A model generated the notes under the pieces. That model ran no database searches. It was not told where the DNA came from and saw only the letters and a program-made list of their open reading frames with translations. The translations under genes and the position numbers were made by a program. Shown piece after piece: positions 1-4,944 of a stretch of 4,944 nucleotides of DNA. The stretch's first letter is position 1. Each line of letters opens with the position of its first letter. The DNA is from a virus. Taxonomy: Duplodnaviria > Heunggongvirae > Uroviricota > Caudoviricetes. The stretch lies in the IMG/VR virus record IMGVR_UViG_648276662_000020; one strand, 5' to 3'.

Positions 1-35
1 CCCCCCCCCCCCCCCCCCCCGGGGTGGGGGGGGCG
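1..35. repeat. Homopolymer block: C20 followed by G-rich run (GGGGTGGGGGGGGCGG); probable sequencing/cloning artefact or contig edge
   Basis: Directly visible: 20 consecutive C, then 16 nt that are G except one T and one C. No coding potential; no resemblance to any motif I recognise. Confidence 0.9.
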
Positions 36-62
36 GTTTTAATGCAGTTGCACTGACACGCT

Positions 63-90
63 CAGACCGCGCCGGGAATGGTGCGGTCTG
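63..90. other. Inverted repeat / stem-loop (8-bp stem CAGACCGC / GCGGTCTG, 12-nt loop) in the region distal to psu
   Basis: Perfect 8-bp reverse-complement arms at 63-70 and 83-90. No flanking T-run, so not called a terminator. Confidence 0.4.
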
Positions 91-118
91 CAGAAAATGA
101 GGCAGGAAAACGCATGCA

Positions 119-150
119 AAGCCATGCACCTTATCGATGCATGGCTTTTT
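119..150. terminator. Candidate bidirectional intrinsic terminator (9-bp stem AGCCATGCA / TGCATGGCT, 9-nt loop, T-run on + strand; interrupted U-tract on - strand)
   Basis: Stem 119-127 pairs with 137-145, followed by TTTTT at 146-150. It lies 35-60 nt downstream of the psu stop on the minus strand, where the minus-strand read-out after the stem is TTTGCATGCGTTTTCC. Confidence 0.5.
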
Positions 151-181
151 TCAGTAAAAACGGGAGGATTTTCGGGGAATT

Positions 182-755
182 TTACACAGACTGACGTGAT
201 GCCAGTTGCGCACTTTTACGCGAAAAAATCATGTTCTGCGCAGGGGTGAATTTTTCACGGCTGTCATCCACCGAAGCCGCGTCAGGCCTGAATCCGATGG
301 TCGTTAAAATGTCACTATCCTGTGCGGAATAATTAATTTTTTCCCCCCTTCGCAAGCCAGGACAGAAGGGCTTCACGCAGGGCATCTGTGGCACGCTGTA
401 TGGCACAGTTTCGGGCAATGGCCGTCAGCTCACTGTAGCCCATCAGCTCCGGTGCCAGTGCCGCCGCCAGTGCTGTGCCGTGCTGCTGCATAAAATCATT
501 CAGCCGGTCGCGGATGCTGATGTGCTGAACGGCTTCATGCGAACGAATATAACGACCGGCGGCCTGATTCACCTGCCATTTTCTGACTTCGATAATATTG
601 CGTAATTCGTCCAGGCGACTGACGTTTCTGCCTTCTCCTGACTGAAGCCGCAGATATTCCTGTTCGGCCGCAGCCAGCTCATTTTTGCGTTGCAGCCATG
701 CTGCTTTGTTATTCTGACAGGTGTCAAAGGCCTGCTGTAAGGCTGTGCTTTCCAT
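182..755 (-). pseudogene. psu: psu (polarity suppression / capsid decoration protein, Rho antagonist), interrupted by a +1 frameshift in a G6A6 homopolymer at about 336-347
   Basis: ORF 333..755 (140 aa, ending ...WLAKGGKN*) and the C-terminal 53 aa of ORF 182..418 (EKINYSAQ...RQSV) are in adjacent frames. Removing one base from the run GGGGGGAAAAAA joins them into exactly 190 aa, the length I recall for P4 Psu. Position immediately downstream of delta fits the sid-delta-psu operon. Confidence 0.75.
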
Positions 756-828
756 CGTTATCTCTTTCTCATCATGCTGAAGAATAAAAATACGGTGTGC
801 GGCGACGGCCGGTGTTAACCGGCAGCCC

Positions 829-1329
829 TCATTCCAGACGCAGCGAATATGATTGTGTTTTTAACCGTACTGGCGGCAGTTCCTGTTTTTCATGCAGGCT
901 TTCTGCAAGCTCGTCCGGCGTGACCGGGCGGACAATGAAGCGGTTGATGGTCTGAAGCGTTTTAAACACCAGACCACAGCCCGGATCCGTGCACACATAA
1001 AAACGCTCGGTGACTTCCTGAGACAGACGCCGCGATGTTCTTGACAGCGCAAGGCCTTTACATCTCCGACAACAATATCCGGTAACAAGCATTCTTTTCG
1101 GGCGCTTCATGCTGCCGGAGGCTGACGTCAGTGAATCGCGGTATCTCTGTTTGCCTGAAATGTATTCCATTCCTGAATCTTTACAGTCAGAGAAAAAGCT
1201 TTCACTCGCTTCAAATGTCGCAGAGCAATAAATATTCCGGCACTGTGCAATCATTATCTTGGTGCCATCGTCCATGAAATGTGCGCGACGGGTATGAGCA
1301 ACATGTCCACACGACGGGCAGTAAATCAT
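829..1329 (-). CDS. delta: delta: late-gene transactivator, tandem duplication of an Ogr-type zinc-finger domain (166 aa)
   Basis: Two C-x2-C ... C-x4-C motifs (CPSCG...CRNIYC and CCRRCKG...CTDPGC) in a 166-aa protein, as expected for P4 Delta. The start ATG overlaps the sid stop (ATGA), indicating translational coupling. Confidence 0.85.
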   Translation of the reverse strand: MIYCPSCGHVAHTRRAHFMDDGTKIMIAQCRNIYCSATFEASESFFSDCKDSGMEYISGKQRYRDSLTSASGSMKRPKRMLVTGYCCRRCKGLALSRTSRRLSQEVTERFYVCTDPGCGLVFKTLQTINRFIVRPVTPDELAESLHEKQELPPVRLKTQSYSLRLE

Positions 1330-2060
1330 GACAGCAGTCCTCTGGCCTTAAGCTCTGCTCCCTGCTGGTCTATTTTGTCCTGCCACACCTTGCGCTGTGC
1401 CGGTGTGCCTGCCACCTCATAATCCATGTGCGGGAGTGTTGCCGCTGACAGTCCGGTCAGCCGGAGAACCGGCTCGCCGGTGAGGCTGATTTGCATCTGT
1501 TTTATTTTCTGTTCCAGCGATGATTTCACCTGCTGCATGACAGCCGTATCGGGTGCGACGTAGCCCTGATGCCCGGTGGTGTTGGCGAGCGGATTTTCCT
1601 GTACCAGAATGCTCAGATGCATTGCCCGGACAAGCGCCTCACAGGTTTCATTCAGGGCGTGTTCCAGCTCATGCTCTGCATACAGACTCAGAAGGTGATG
1701 ATGTGCCTTCCGGTAGGCGGTGGCCGTGCTGTCACACGCCCCTTTCAGGCGTTCGCGTTCAAAATTCAGCACCACGGCCAGATTGTCATATTCCTGTACC
1801 AGCTCCCGGCGTGCCACGCGCTCAATGTGGCGCTGTTTCAGCTCGTCGCTCAGGACACCACCGGCTGCACGAAAGGCCGTGCGCCAGTCGTCAGCGTCGT
1901 TTCCGTCGGCCTGCGTCAGCGCATTTTTTTCCTGCTCTGCCCGTTCAATGGCCGTGACGGTCTCATCCATCAGGCGGGCGTTCTCAAGATGGGCGGCTCT
2001 GGCCTTTTCCAGTTGTGCCAGTGCGGGTTGCAGATATTCAGGGATAGTGTGGTCAGACAT
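1326..2060 (-). CDS. sid: sid: capsid size-determination (external scaffold) protein, 244 aa from ATG at 2058-2060
   Basis: The ORF track gives 250 aa from an upstream ATG. I prefer the internal ATG (MSDHTIPEY...) because a GAGGAG Shine-Dalgarno sits 6-11 nt upstream and 244 aa matches the recalled Sid length. First gene of the leftward late operon. Confidence 0.8.
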   Translation of the reverse strand: MSDHTIPEYLQPALAQLEKARAAHLENARLMDETVTAIERAEQEKNALTQADGNDADDWRTAFRAAGGVLSDELKQRHIERVARRELVQEYDNLAVVLNFERERLKGACDSTATAYRKAHHHLLSLYAEHELEHALNETCEALVRAMHLSILVQENPLANTTGHQGYVAPDTAVMQQVKSSLEQKIKQMQISLTGEPVLRLTGLSAATLPHMDYEVAGTPAQRKVWQDKIDQQGAELKARGLLS

Positions 2061-2085
2061 TTTCCGGCTCCTCGTCACTTCAGGT

Positions 2086-2150
2086 TAAGAAAATTGTGAC
2101 GTACACCGGACAACAACACGACACATTGCAGATGTGCCAGTCCTGACACA
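2086..2150 (-). promoter_or_regulatory. Psid-like late promoter: Delta/Ogr activator site TGT-N12-ACA at 2133-2150, -10-like CACAAT (minus strand, 2094-2099)
   Basis: TGT-N12-ACA is the established recognition dyad of Ogr/Delta activators, centred near -55. Centre at 2141.5 predicts a TSS near 2086, giving a ~26-nt leader to the sid ATG. Confidence 0.5.
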
Positions 2151-2227
2151 GGAGACTCATCCTCACACCGGCAAGCCAGGAAAAGGTCACAGGAAAAACC
2201 GGCTTACTGTTTGTTTTTTATATTTTA

Positions 2228-2333
2228 CTGTTCACCTCTGTTCACCTTAATAAAAAAGATAAGTAATACAGTAAGTTAAAGGGTGAACAATCGCAGTAAT
2301 GACTGTTTACCGTCTATTCACCACTGTTCACCC
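2228..2333. repeat. Replication-origin-like iteron cluster (P4 ori-type): octamer TGTTCACC in direct and inverted copies
   Basis: Perfect TGTTCACC at 2229-2236, 2239-2246 and 2325-2332; inverted copy GGTGAACA at 2282-2289; one-mismatch copies at 2304-2311 and 2315-2322. An AT-rich stretch follows (about 2370-2460). TGTTCACC is the alpha-protein binding octamer of P4 ori/crr as I recall it. Confidence 0.6.
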
Positions 2334-2436
2334 GTTGATGGGCTTTTTGTGCTGTTTACTACTGTTTGTTTTTATTAATTCGCCGGGAATGAATAAGAAA
2401 AAACGATTTGTATTTCACTATAAAAATTACGAATTG

Positions 2437-2466
2437 CTTTAAGTGGCTTTAAATGACTTTAAGTGG
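2437..2466. repeat. Three tandem 10-bp repeats (CTTTAAGTGG / CTTTAAATGA / CTTTAAGTGG) at the edge of the AT-rich region
   Basis: Directly visible head-to-tail 10-mers; units 1 and 3 are identical, unit 2 differs at 2 positions. Function unknown (origin unwinding element or regulator binding site). Confidence 0.6.
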
Positions 2467-2491
2467 AGATGAACAAAAAACACACAAGCAT

Positions 2492-2556
2492 TGTAAGGCT
2501 GCCGGAACAAATCCCCCCTGTTGCGTCTGCTGAAAATATTTACAAAATAAAGCGCT
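2492..2556 (+). promoter_or_regulatory. PLL-like Delta/Ogr-dependent late promoter upstream of vis: TGT-N12-ACA at 2492-2509, -10-like TACAAAAT at 2541-2548
   Basis: The dyad centre (2500.5) predicts a TSS near 2555, about 395 nt upstream of the predicted PLE start, matching the ~400-nt PLL-PLE spacing reported for P4. The -10-like sequence resembles that of the Psid candidate. Confidence 0.45.
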
Positions 2557-2611
2557 ACCCGAAGCCGGACGGACTTATCCGGTGCTGTATGGACATTAAC
2601 GAGGTAGCCCG

Positions 2612-2878
2612 ATGCAAGCTGTTTTTTCTTCCCCGTCTCCCGCCCCTGTGACACCACTGATGCCGCTGCCGGACATCACGCAGGAGCGTTTTTTACGTCT
2701 GCCGGAAGTGATGCACCTGTGCGGCCTGTCACGCTCGACCATCTATGAACTCATCCGTAAGGGGGAATTTCCGCCGCAGGTGAGTCTTGGCGGTAAAAAT
2801 GTGGCCTGGCTGCACTCTGAAGTCACCGCATGGATGGCCGGGCGCATCGCCGGACGCAAACGGGGGTACGACGCATGA
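2612..2878 (+). CDS. vis: vis: AlpA/Vis-family helix-turn-helix regulator / excisionase-like protein (88 aa)
   Basis: 88-aa ORF with a GAGG Shine-Dalgarno 7 nt upstream; the central segment [28 protein letters not shown] is typical of AlpA-family HTH proteins. Position and size match P4 vis (orf88), the first gene after PLL. Confidence 0.8.
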
Positions 2879-3474
2879 TGATGCCCGCTCTGCAAAAACT
2901 CCCTTTTTCTGGCTTGCCTTTTTCCGGCATTTGCGGATATAGTTTTTCCGCTGTCGCAAAATCGGCAGCCGGGCGTGGAAACCCGTGTAACTCGAAGGCG
3001 ACATATGACGCGCCATGCGTCTTTTTTTGTGTCGCAATCAACGCCACAGAGCGCCAGATTATGGTGTGGTGTGTGGTCAGTCGTGCAGATGGCATTCCGT
3101 GCATCCTGCCCGCGTCCGCTCATTATGCCGCAGAGTCAATGGTAGCTCAGGCGGGGCAGCCTCCGGGCTGGCCGGTATTCTTCGAGGCCGGTATTTCCAC
3201 CCCCGTCTGGGCTATCGCCATTGAGCGTGGAAACTCCGGCTATAGCAGTTATTTGCTACTCGAAGGAGGCTGCCTTATGGCTACAACCCTTACCCCCTCA
3301 CACCCTGAATTTGTCTTTGTGTTTGCGGCTGTCCGTCGTGCAGACCGTCATCCCCGTATCTGTATGCTTCGCACCGTCGCCGGTGATGAACGCAGTGCCC
3401 GCCGTTCCCTTGTCCGTGACTATGTGCTCTCCCTTGCTGCCCGTCTGCCGGTGATGGGGGTGTCCCGTGCGTAA
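2875..3474 (+). CDS. eta: eta: long ORF beginning upstream of PLE, with kil as its in-frame terminal part (197-199 aa depending on which of three consecutive ATGs is used)
   Basis: Three consecutive ATG codons at 2875-2883 overlap the vis stop (ATGATGATG) and give 199/198/197 aa, matching the description of P4 eta as I recall it. I reject the ORF-track start at 2830 because it lies inside vis. High-GC non-coding RNA sequence is embedded, so coding status rests largely on the literature. Confidence 0.55.
2914..2950 (+). promoter_or_regulatory. PLE-like sigma70 promoter: -35 TTGCCT (2914-2919), 18-nt spacer, -10 TATAGT (2938-2943)
   Basis: Hexamer match and spacing read from the sequence. Lies just upstream of the seqA-like element and about 330 nt upstream of kil. 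Adjacent repeated CCTTTTTC (2902-2909, 2917-2924) could be a regulator site. Confidence 0.4.
3007..3028 (+). terminator. Intrinsic-terminator-like hairpin (GACGC / GCGTC stem, 5-nt loop) followed by T7, immediately downstream of the seqA-like element
   Basis: Stem 3007-3011 pairs with 3017-3021; T-run 3022-3028. The short stem makes it a weak candidate; it may act as an attenuator or pause site in the PLE leader. Confidence 0.3.
3165..3210 (+). ncRNA. cI: Candidate core of the cI-type immunity RNA (seqB-like), complementary to the seqA-like (2971-2998) and seqC-like (3224-3268) elements; ends not determinable
   Basis: The reverse complement of 3172-3200 contains GTGGAAA...CTCGAAG. Both blocks also occur in direct orientation at 2975-2981 / 2991-2997 and 3227-3233 / 3259-3265. 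This matches the P4 immunity arrangement in which CI RNA pairs with seqA and seqC on the nascent transcript. Confidence 0.4.
3277..3474 (+). CDS. kil: kil: 65-aa host-killing peptide, first gene translated from PLE transcripts
   Basis: ATG at 3277-3279 preceded by a strong Shine-Dalgarno GAAGGAGG (3262-3269), giving exactly 65 aa, the size reported for P4 Kil. The Shine-Dalgarno lies inside the seqC-like element. Confidence 0.6.
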
Positions 3475-3754
3475 TAAAAAAGCCCCTCAGACCGTCTCAG
3501 CGCGTCATGACGCCCGTGAACACCTCAGCATTGAGGCTTACCATAAGCTCAACCGCGCCAGCGCCGTATCCCAGTTTGTTGGGGGTGATTTGATTCACCG
3601 TGAACTCTCCGGCCTGCATCAGCTCTACATTCCGCATATTTTCAGCTACCTGAATGAAGATATTGATTTTGTGCTGAATGAGCTGAAAGCCAAAGGCCTG
3701 TGCCGCGATTTTCTCGCCCAGCAGAAAGACCGGGGAGACAGGACGCATGTTTGA
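3467..3754 (+). CDS. epsilon: epsilon: small protein (95 aa from GTG), candidate derepressor/antirepressor of the helper prophage
   Basis: The ORF has no in-frame ATG; GTG at 3467-3469 overlaps the kil stop and is preceded by a G-rich stretch. Its stop overlaps the next ORF start (ATGTTTGA). Identity is inferred from position between kil and the 151-aa ORF; the start codon is uncertain. Confidence 0.55.
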
Positions 3755-4202
3755 TTTTCCCCAGCCCGGTGAGATTTACCGTTCTGCCGGTTTTCCCGAT
3801 GTGGCCGTGGTCGGCATTCTGGAAGACGGTATTCCGTGGGAAATGCCGTACCGCTGCCCGGAAATTGTCTGGAACCCGTACCGCCGTAAATTCAGTATCC
3901 TTGTGCGTATCCTCGCCGACGGGCGCACCACAGACATCCCGCTGGGGCGTTTTCTGAGGGAATTTACCTGTGACCGTCCTGACCTGTTTAAACGCAGCCC
4001 CGTAAACCGGCATGCGGTACTGAAAGAAATGGCCGGAGACCCGGAATTACAGAAATGGCGGGAGAAATATCTGGATATTTACCCGCAGGACACTGTTCCG
4101 GTCAGCCGGGCGGCACCGGTGGCGCGGGAATGGCGGGAAATTCCCCGCACGGAGCCTGACCCGGAAATCACCCCGGATAACAGTTACCGCAATTATCTGT
4201 AA
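3747..4202 (+). CDS. Conserved hypothetical protein of the left operon (151 aa; orf151 in P4 nomenclature)
   Basis: ATG with Shine-Dalgarno GGGGAGA 8 nt upstream; length and position match P4 orf151. Function unknown. Confidence 0.75.
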   Translation: MFDFPQPGEIYRSAGFPDVAVVGILEDGIPWEMPYRCPEIVWNPYRRKFSILVRILADGRTTDIPLGRFLREFTCDRPDLFKRSPVNRHAVLKEMAGDPELQKWREKYLDIYPQDTVPVSRAAPVAREWREIPRTEPDPEITPDNSYRNYL

Positions 4203-4230
4203 TTAAAAAACGACACCCGAAAAATTAAAT

Positions 4231-4256
4231 GTGCGTATTCGCGCAGGGATACGCAC
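4231..4256 (+). other. Stem-loop (8-bp stem GTGCGTAT / ATACGCAC, 10-nt loop) in the intergenic region after the 151-aa ORF, without a T-run
   Basis: Perfect inverted repeat read from the sequence. It is not followed by a U-tract, so it is more likely an RNA processing/stability element or protein site than an intrinsic terminator. Confidence 0.4.
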
Positions 4257-4337
4257 GTCTTCAGGAGACGCAGATATGCCTTATCAGTTAATGCAACCGG
4301 CACGGAATGCAGTCATCTGTCACAGGGAGGAAAGCAA

Positions 4338-4658
4338 ATGAAAACACCCTTACCGCCCGTCTTACGCGCAGCCCTTTACCGTCGCGCTGTCGCCTGTGCC
4401 TGGCTGACCGTGTGCGAACGTCAGCACCGCTACCCGCATCTCACCCTTGAATCACTGGAGGCGGCCATCGCCGCTGAGCTGGAAGGCTTTTATCTGCGCC
4501 AGCACGGTGAGGAAAAAGGGCGTCAGATAGCCTGTGCCCTGCTGGAAGATTTAATGGAATCCGGCCCCCTGAAGGCCGCGCCGTCGCTGTCCTTTCTCGG
4601 GCTGGTTGTGATGGATGAACTCTGTGCCCGTCACATAAAAGCGCCGGTACTGCACTGA
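4338..4658 (+). CDS. Conserved hypothetical protein of the left operon (106 aa; orf106 in P4 nomenclature)
   Basis: ATG with Shine-Dalgarno GGGAGG 8 nt upstream; ends 14 nt before the alpha start. Function unknown. Confidence 0.75.
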
Positions 4659-4672
4659 AGGAGAACAACACC

Positions 4673-4944
4673 ATGAAAATGAACGTAACCGCCACCGTCA
4701 GCCATGCGCTCGGCCACTGGCCGCGTATTCTCCCGGCGCTGGGGATTCAGGTGCTGAAAAACCGTCATCAGCCCTGTCCGGTCTGTGGCGGGAGTGACCG
4801 CTTCCGTTTTGATGGCAGGGAGGGGCGCGGCACCTGGTACTGCAATCAGTGTGGTGCCGGTGACGGCCTGAAACTGGTTGAAAAGGTGTTTGGTGTCTCC
4901 CCGTCCGACGCGGCCACAAAGGTGGCTGCCGTGACCGGCAGCCT
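4673..4944 (+). CDS. alpha: alpha: replication primase-helicase, N-terminal 90 codons only (zinc-ribbon primase domain); continues beyond the window
   Basis: ATG at 4673 with Shine-Dalgarno AAGGAG at 4658-4663. The translation MKMNVTATVSHALGHWPRILPALGIQVLKNRHQPCPVCGG...WYCNQCGAGDG carries a C-x2-C ... C-x2-C zinc-binding motif typical of P4-alpha-type primases. The frame stays open to the window end. Confidence 0.9.
   Translation, partial: MKMNVTATVSHALGHWPRILPALGIQVLKNRHQPCPVCGGSDRFRFDGREGRGTWYCNQCGAGDGLKLVEKVFGVSPSDAATKVAAVTGS

Follow-up and report, generated by a model that had tools for sequence, protein, structure and literature searches.

A P4-type immunity region with matched changes in its three complementary RNA blocks and a predicted immunity specificity of its own

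Results

A close relative of P4

The window, that is, the whole 4944-nt stretch of DNA that was analysed, was 97.9% identical to P4 over positions 30–4944, with 101 differences across 4915 aligned positions and an identical, collinear gene order. The genes psu, delta and sid are on the minus strand. The ori repeats lie between them and the plus-strand genes, which are, in order, vis/orf88 (AlpA family), the immunity region, epsilon (Pfam Derepression), orf151, cnr (DUF5375) and the start of the alpha primase gene. The CI gene is located in the leader of the replication (alpha) operon, 3' of a promoter-like site and on the same strand as its targets.

Two peculiarities lie near the left end. 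Positions 1–29 consist of C20 followed by GGGGTGGGGGGGG, and homology to P4 starts only at position 30, which corresponds to a site 12 nt inside the P4 right cos end. This segment resembles a homopolymer artefact (from tailing, or from sequencing or assembly effects at the end of a linear phage) and is unlikely to be biological. The psu gene (minus strand, 755 to about 183) is frameshifted by one extra C in a C-run at 343–352; its ORF ends at 140 aa and spans 1–134 of the 182-position Pfam Psu model, whereas psu is intact in E. coli relatives (about 190–200 aa). The frameshift is either a homopolymer sequencing error or the mark of a defective copy, and because of it the element as sequenced may be defective even with an intact immunity region.

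Features of the immunity region

The following features, all on the plus strand, were identified.

2830–3474, plus strand: eta-like long ORF in the kil frame, spanning seqA, cI and seqC; 214 aa from the first ATG
2914–2943, plus strand: PLE-like sigma-70 promoter (TTGCCT, 18-nt spacer, TATAGT); predicted transcript start near 2950
2950–3027, plus strand: leader RNA, IsrK-like ('seqA RNA'); full-length match to Rfam RF01394 isrK, 71.3 bits (gathering score 50), E 2.3e-14
2975–2998, plus strand: seqA, the upstream target; GTGGAAA (2975–2981) pairs with 3194–3200, and CTCGAAGG (2991–2998) pairs with 3179–3186
3007–3028, plus strand: t1-like intrinsic terminator; stem 3007–3011 with 3017–3021, then seven T
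3135–3222, plus strand: CI (C4-family) antisense RNA gene; Rfam RF01695 C4, 76.7 bits (gathering score 45), E 2.4e-14
3176–3200, plus strand: seqB, the antisense determinant; hairpin-2 loop 3176–3187 and unpaired bulge 3193–3200
3227–3269, plus strand: seqC, the downstream target; GTGGAAA (3227–3233) pairs with 3194–3200, and CTCGAAGGA (3259–3267) pairs with 3178–3186
3265–3279, plus strand: kil translation initiation region; GGAGG 3265–3269, 7-nt spacer, ATG 3277–3279
3277–3474, plus strand: kil, 65 aa, Icd-like cell-division inhibitor; NCBIfam NF033153 phage_ICD_like, 76.1 bits (cut-off 25)

For comparison we gathered 120 loci, one genome per species, using a pattern that fixed the conserved CI scaffold alone and left the loop, the bulge, seqA and seqC free. 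Alignment A2 comprises 66 P4-like loci from many Enterobacterales genera.

When both strands of 2400–3600 were scanned, the PLE-like site was the only promoter-like site found and t1 the only terminator-like one. The promoter stretch is exactly that of P4, and its −35 and −10 elements are conserved in A2. The leader RNA consists of a hairpin (2950–2969), a second hairpin (2970–2985) with GUGGAAA in its loop, the single-stranded CUCGAAGG immediately 5' of t1, and t1 itself; its helices were 84–98% paired across the 66 loci. This is the make-up of IsrK, namely two 5' hairpins and a Rho-independent terminator, 5' of a C4-like RNA. The terminator differs from that of P4 by one base. Its stem was 98.1% paired across the 66 loci, with an outer pair that swaps between CG and GC (35:25), and it lies between seqA and cI, as P4-type immunity requires.

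About 45 extra nucleotides between t1 and cI (3030–3134; A2 columns 243–286) were present in the window, in P4 and in loci L062 and L116, and absent from the other 62 loci. This insert places seqA 178 nt 5' of the scaffold motif, compared with 133–139 nt in loci without it.

The CI fold has a 17-bp closing stem (3140–3156 with 3201–3217), hairpin 1 (3157–3170) and hairpin 2 (3171–3192). The segment 3140–3220 (81 nt) had a minimum free energy (MFE) of −48 kcal/mol with z = −4.23, and the shape of the MFE structure was that of Rfam C4. The closing stem was 99.7% paired across the 66 loci; helices 5 and 6 were invariant in A2 but had been fixed by the search pattern, and they were excluded as evidence. 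The scaffold is identical to that of P4 or nearly so. An initial annotation, made from the sequence without database searches, had held that the exact ends of the CI RNA could not be read from the letters; homology to C4 processing narrowed them to about 3141–3219, where the mature RNA is predicted to lie. This prediction follows from the rule published for C4, in which RNase P cleaves 5' of GGW at the stem foot (PMC5320573). Signals of the processing type are found at both ends, with GGU (3141–3143) at the stem foot and CCA (3218–3220) 3' of the stem.

Downstream, kil is the first gene to be translated, and its translation start region is overlapped by seqC. The initial annotation had put a seqC-like copy over the kil Shine–Dalgarno sequence at 3262–3269; the overlap itself held, but the GGAGG core lies at 3265–3269. 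The overlap is real because the seqB loop pairs with 3259–3267, and this seqC loop target, CUCGAAGGA, extends into the GGAGG. The GGAG and ATG columns of the kil start are conserved in A2. The two blocks are 25 nt apart in seqC, compared with 9 nt in seqA, and the seqC spacer can form a small hairpin (about 3243–3258) that was 75% paired across loci and is moderately supported. The 5' part of kil is C-rich and G-poor (rut-like), with C minus G of +0.17 in 3250–3340, the 97th percentile of the window. All the defining features of P4-type immunity that can be tested on sequence were present in the window.

Three blocks match the exposed parts of the CI RNA

We searched all 4944 bases on both strands for the two short blocks. 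GTGGAAA was found on the plus strand at 2975 and 3227 only, and TTTCCAC at 3194 only; likewise, CTCGAAG was found at 2991 and 3259 only, and CTTCGAG at 3180 only. The composite pattern GTGGAAA-N(5–30)-CTCGAAG had three matches, two on the plus strand (2975–2997 and 3227–3265) and one on the minus strand (3180–3200), whereas 200 dinucleotide-preserving shuffles gave a mean of 0.00 and a maximum of 0. The two direct copies with a reverse complement between them, as described in the initial annotation, were confirmed by this search. The middle copy was also upheld, but its proper extent is 3180–3200, since the start proposed at 3172 takes in the stem of the presenting hairpin. Pairing reaches one pair beyond the blocks, U3179 pairing with G2998 and with G3266.

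The seqB cores are CTTCGAG (3180–3186), in the 12-nt loop of hairpin 2, and TTTCCAC (3194–3200), in the bulge before the closing stem. The reverse-complement copy is therefore located exactly in both unpaired parts of the CI fold. Folding and duplex prediction, which the initial annotation had suggested as a check, bore out the pairing, with the reverse copy unpaired in the CI fold and cognate duplexes of about −20 kcal/mol.

Pairing is maintained by compensatory changes

Alignment A2 was then used to examine covariation. For seqA:seqB, 98.7% of cells were paired, and both partners had changed at 12 of 15 pairs, with 275 compensatory cells; sliding the partner by 1–3 columns reduced pairing to 37–52%. 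For seqB:seqC, 95.2% of cells were paired, and at 13 of 18 pairs changes were seen in both partners, with 274 compensatory cells. Slid controls over both pairings gave 35–52%. A flank test was performed on 121 loci, Burkholderiales, Ralstonia and Cellvibrionaceae among them. In 99 of the 121, a locus's own elements had complements of 7 nt or more on both the upstream and the downstream side, whereas elements from other loci had such complements in 19 of 1210 trials. Together with the Rfam C4 and isrK matches and the exposed positions in the fold, the covariation over 66 loci supports the CI RNA architecture with an upstream and a downstream target that the initial annotation had proposed.

The variable cores contained 34 G.U wobbles and 12 A.C mismatches. 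This excess of G.U over A.C is consistent with pairing of the plus-strand transcript rather than DNA-level symmetry, and it bears on the idea that the blocks are operators or looping sites at which a protein repressor binds DNA. Repeats in direct and inverted orientation close to a promoter are a typical feature of operators, and the P4 ORF that overlaps the region carries the RefSeq label 'transcriptional repressor'. However, strand-asymmetric wobbles are not expected of DNA sites, all three copies lie 3' of the promoter in the transcribed leader, and the central copy sits inside a structured RNA family. We searched the eta/kil ORF for a DNA-binding domain and detected none, and published P4 genetics assigns immunity to RNA (PMC4825925, PMC3632133). 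The chance that the blocks act as operators is close to negligible, and RNA–RNA pairing is the reading that we retain.

The tripartite layout was also seen around C4-like RNAs of Ralstonia, Burkholderia, Cupriavidus and Cellvibrionaceae (L005, L015, L018, L023, L024, L027, L033 and others). In these loci a complement of the bulge lies about 90–100 nt upstream and about 30–35 nt downstream, and a complement of the loop extends into a GGAG about 60 nt downstream. Four P4-like loci (L062, L110, L052 and L087) came from assemblies labelled Clostridiales (MAGs) and Vagococcus; enterobacterial contamination or mis-binning is the most likely explanation for them.

The region is also part of an open reading frame

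The kil and eta frames are nested in the window, and in 55 of 63 P4-like loci the frame is open for at least 100 codons 5' of the kil ATG. Pfam PF10554 Phage_ASH matched residues 37–161 of the eta-like ORF with 80 bits (window 2938–3312), covering seqA, cI and seqC, and the old P4 annotation names a cI protein here. These observations favour an explanation in which the repeats are a by-product of coding in the eta/'Ash' ORF, through peptide motifs or codon constraints, and have nothing to do with RNA–RNA pairing. Peptide repetition, however, cannot yield a reverse-complement copy. Nor does it account for the compensatory base-pair substitutions in the two pairings, or for the position of the middle copy exactly in the unpaired parts of the Rfam C4 fold.

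A comparison with P4 points the same way. In the seqC spacer, a +1 insertion (A3247) and a −1 deletion (3274/3275) lie 27 nt apart, and as a result the eta frame is regained after 9 shifted codons; the RNA blocks are undisturbed. The same pair of indels was also seen in L116 (Tenebrionibacter intestinalis).

We regard coding as a very improbable source of the blocks. Coding and RNA function coexist in the region, and the blocks are not explained by coding. The RNA elements are probably the main driver of conservation in the Phage_ASH family, even though maintenance of the eta frame is real.

The blocks differ from P4 in concert

The alignment to the P4 cI region that the initial annotation had called for placed the three blocks exactly on the P4 immunity region. 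The 83 nt of these blocks hold 19 of the 101 differences from P4, with 1.7 expected (P about 1e-15). In seqB, five in-block positions (3182, 3183, 3186, 3196 and 3197) and position 3179 are changed. The five in-block changes are matched in seqA at 2995, 2994, 2991, 2979 and 2978, and in seqC at 3263, 3262, 3259, 3231 and 3230, respectively, and Watson–Crick pairing is thus retained at all 10 of the 10 pairs. In total seqA has seven differences, five of which compensate the seqB changes. The target and bulge read GUGGAAA/UUUCCAC in the window but GUGAGAA/UUCUCAC in P4, and the target and loop read CUCGAAG/CUUCGAG in the window but UUCACAG/CUGUGAA in P4.

Since the element differs from P4 precisely in the blocks, a different immunity specificity is predicted, which goes beyond what the initial annotation had seen. 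We calculated duplex energies for the exposed elements. Cognate duplexes had −19.6 kcal/mol with seqA and −21.0 kcal/mol with seqC, whereas cross duplexes (window CI with P4 targets, and P4 CI with window targets) had −8.0 to −10.0 kcal/mol. Cross-pairing with P4 is therefore predicted to be weaker by about 10–12 kcal/mol. On the basis of these energies and the coordinated differences in the three blocks, the element and P4 are predicted to be heteroimmune, each conferring immunity to itself and not to the other.

Two other calculations were tried and set aside. Whole-molecule cofolding of CI with seqA or seqC gave no more than −3 to −6 kcal/mol in ddG and did not favour cognate targets, since loop–loop contacts cannot form in an MFE dimer; it was replaced by the exposed-element duplexes. 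When the window was scanned with a 33-nt seqB query as a specificity test, seqC ranked first (−34.7 kcal/mol), but unrelated GC-rich sites at 4091 and 1426 were nearly equal; this poor discrimination arose because the query contained hairpin-stem bases.

The matched triple substitutions relative to P4 amount to a natural compensatory-mutation experiment, which gives the published seqA/seqB/seqC pairing model an independent confirmation. A further prediction from them is mutual superinfection, in which the satellite of the window and P4 would each be able to superinfect lysogens of the other.

Distribution and modularity of the blocks

Some P4-like cI region was found in 1,242 of 5,426 E. coli genomes, and in 21 complete E. 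coli genomes the 401-nt region of the window was present with an identity of 99% or more. Three E. coli relatives that carry the allele of the window were inspected. They differed in cargo and in chromosomal context, one adjoined a tRNA-Leu gene, and no retron was seen beside the element in the three.

The 66 loci carried 24 different loops and 8 different bulges, each matched at both targets, and these occurred in 37 combinations, indicating that the modules reassort between elements. The bulge of the window, AUUUCCAC, was common to 9 loci, and its loop, UAUUCUUCGAGG, was unique among the 66. Locus L062 combines the P4 loop with the bulge of the window. These patterns tentatively suggest that the allele made up of loop UAUUCUUCGAGG and bulge AUUUCCAC is an uncharacterised specificity and that P4-like satellites have an RNA 'immunity code' combined from two modules, a proposal to which we give somewhat less than even odds. 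No mention of such a code was found in the large surveys of P4-like elements that were consulted. If the proposal is true, three sites within a translated ORF, together spanning about 290 nt, have been replaced repeatedly in concert, and satellites diversify immunity as lambdoid phages diversify repressors. Should the modular diversity hold, the thousands of P4-like satellites of Enterobacterales could be sorted into immunity groups by sequence.

Discussion

A model for immunity control

The interval is very probably the immunity region of a P4-like satellite prophage, with a PLE/seqA/t1/CI/seqC/kil mechanism as in P4. The P4 immunity mechanism has been described (PMC4825925, PMC3632133), and in P4-like prophages the homologue of C4 is the CI RNA and that of IsrK is the seqA leader (PMC3632133, PMC4825925). 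For annotation, the consequence is that pipelines name such a stretch only by its ORF ('Icd-like protein' or 'Ash/cI protein'), whereas its true function is that of an immunity switch based on RNA.

The proposed sequence of events is as follows. The PLE-like promoter would transcribe a leader in which seqA is followed by t1, a weak intrinsic terminator, and then by the CI gene, seqC and the start of kil. The C4-family fold of CI is predicted to expose the hairpin-2 loop CUUCGAG and the bulge UUUCCAC, both complementary to seqA and to seqC. These parts, the fold and the complementarity were computed here; the steps from CI excision onwards, as far as the escape of PLL transcripts, are inferred from published P4, P1 and P7 work. 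By that analogy CI would be excised from the PLE transcript, with its 5' end made by RNase P and corresponding to G3141 in the window. Pairing of CI with seqA of nascent transcripts would lead to more stopping at t1, and CI would in this way limit its own synthesis. Pairing of CI with seqC would block kil translation, and the untranslated, C-rich kil RNA would as a consequence be terminated (t4, Rho-dependent timm). In the lysogen, such termination would silence epsilon, orf151, cnr and the alpha primase. Transcripts that start at the PLL promoter, further upstream, may escape CI control because ribosomes translating eta would traverse the whole region. Part of the basis for these steps is the P4 work of Forti et al. 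1999 and Briani et al. 2000.

We looked for a seqA-dependent antiterminator/terminator switch at t1 by equilibrium folding, and the pair probability of t1 was 0.9 whether or not seqA was masked. An alternative fold, in which GCGUGG pairs with the 3' half of t1, lay about 2 kcal/mol above the MFE and was not convincing as a switch. As t1 was predicted with or without masking of seqA, the modelling gives no account of CI-stimulated termination; and as the folding contained no equilibrium antiterminator at t1, the seqA step in our model is based on the literature rather than on modelling.

This result bears on a simpler circuit of the P1/P7 kind, in which CI would be purely a translational repressor of kil (icd) through seqC, Rho alone would terminate, and seqA would serve as a decoy or titration site for autoregulation. 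Besides the folding without a seqA-dependent switch, such a circuit gains from the homology of kil to Icd, from the rut-like composition of the 5' region of kil, and from the C4 b' loop, which occludes a ribosome-binding site (PMC5320573). On the other side, nearly all of the 66 loci have kept both t1 and seqA, with about 10 nt between them. In addition, Briani et al. 2000 reportedly observed in vitro that termination at t1 was enhanced by CI and that seqA was required. Taken together, we consider a circuit without the seqA–t1 step unlikely, and the dual action of CI on seqA and seqC is the reading that we prefer.

Comparison with known systems

The leader of the window scores as Rfam isrK and can be set beside the IsrK/STnc1160–orf45–anrP region of Gifsy-1 in Salmonella. 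IsrK is a structural homologue of the P4 seqA RNA, with a C4-like RNA downstream (PMC4825925, PMC3632133). The short IsrK of Gifsy-1 acts in trans and activates translation of an antiterminator-related toxin, a role that is neither known nor indicated for the window.

With the immI region of P1 and P7 (C4–icd–ant), the window shares the Rfam C4 family and two exposed elements that pair upstream of, and at, the ribosome-binding site of an icd-like gene. By analogy it would also share a small RNA processed from the transcript that it controls, and translation-coupled termination. The two differ in the genes controlled, which in the window are the satellite epsilon, cnr and alpha replication operon, and in the second, upstream target, seqA, which is coupled to an intrinsic terminator. 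The antirepressor gene ant is absent from the window, where kil is followed by epsilon, orf151, DUF5375 and primase, and the region is thus not a member of the P1/P7 c4–icd–ant module.

A conceptual parallel is offered by phiR73, a P4-like retronphage that, according to Sabbattini et al. 1996 in Virology, is reportedly heteroimmune to P4. Its immunity specificity is said to be set by matched changes in seqA, seqB and seqC. We liken the window to phiR73 by concept, as a P4 relative with matched block changes, and not by sequence.

The closest system is P4 itself. The order PLE–seqA–t1–cI RNA–seqC–kil/eta is the same in the window, as are the spacing and strand of the parts and the flanking genes (vis/orf88, epsilon, orf151, cnr, alpha, sid, delta and psu). 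What sets the window apart is the concerted alteration of five positions in seqB together with the ten bases that pair with them in seqA and seqC, and the +1/−1 indels in the seqC spacer. The known system was thus correctly recognised, and its member here is new or at least uncharacterised: an ordinary P4-type immunity region, probably with an immunity specificity of its own.
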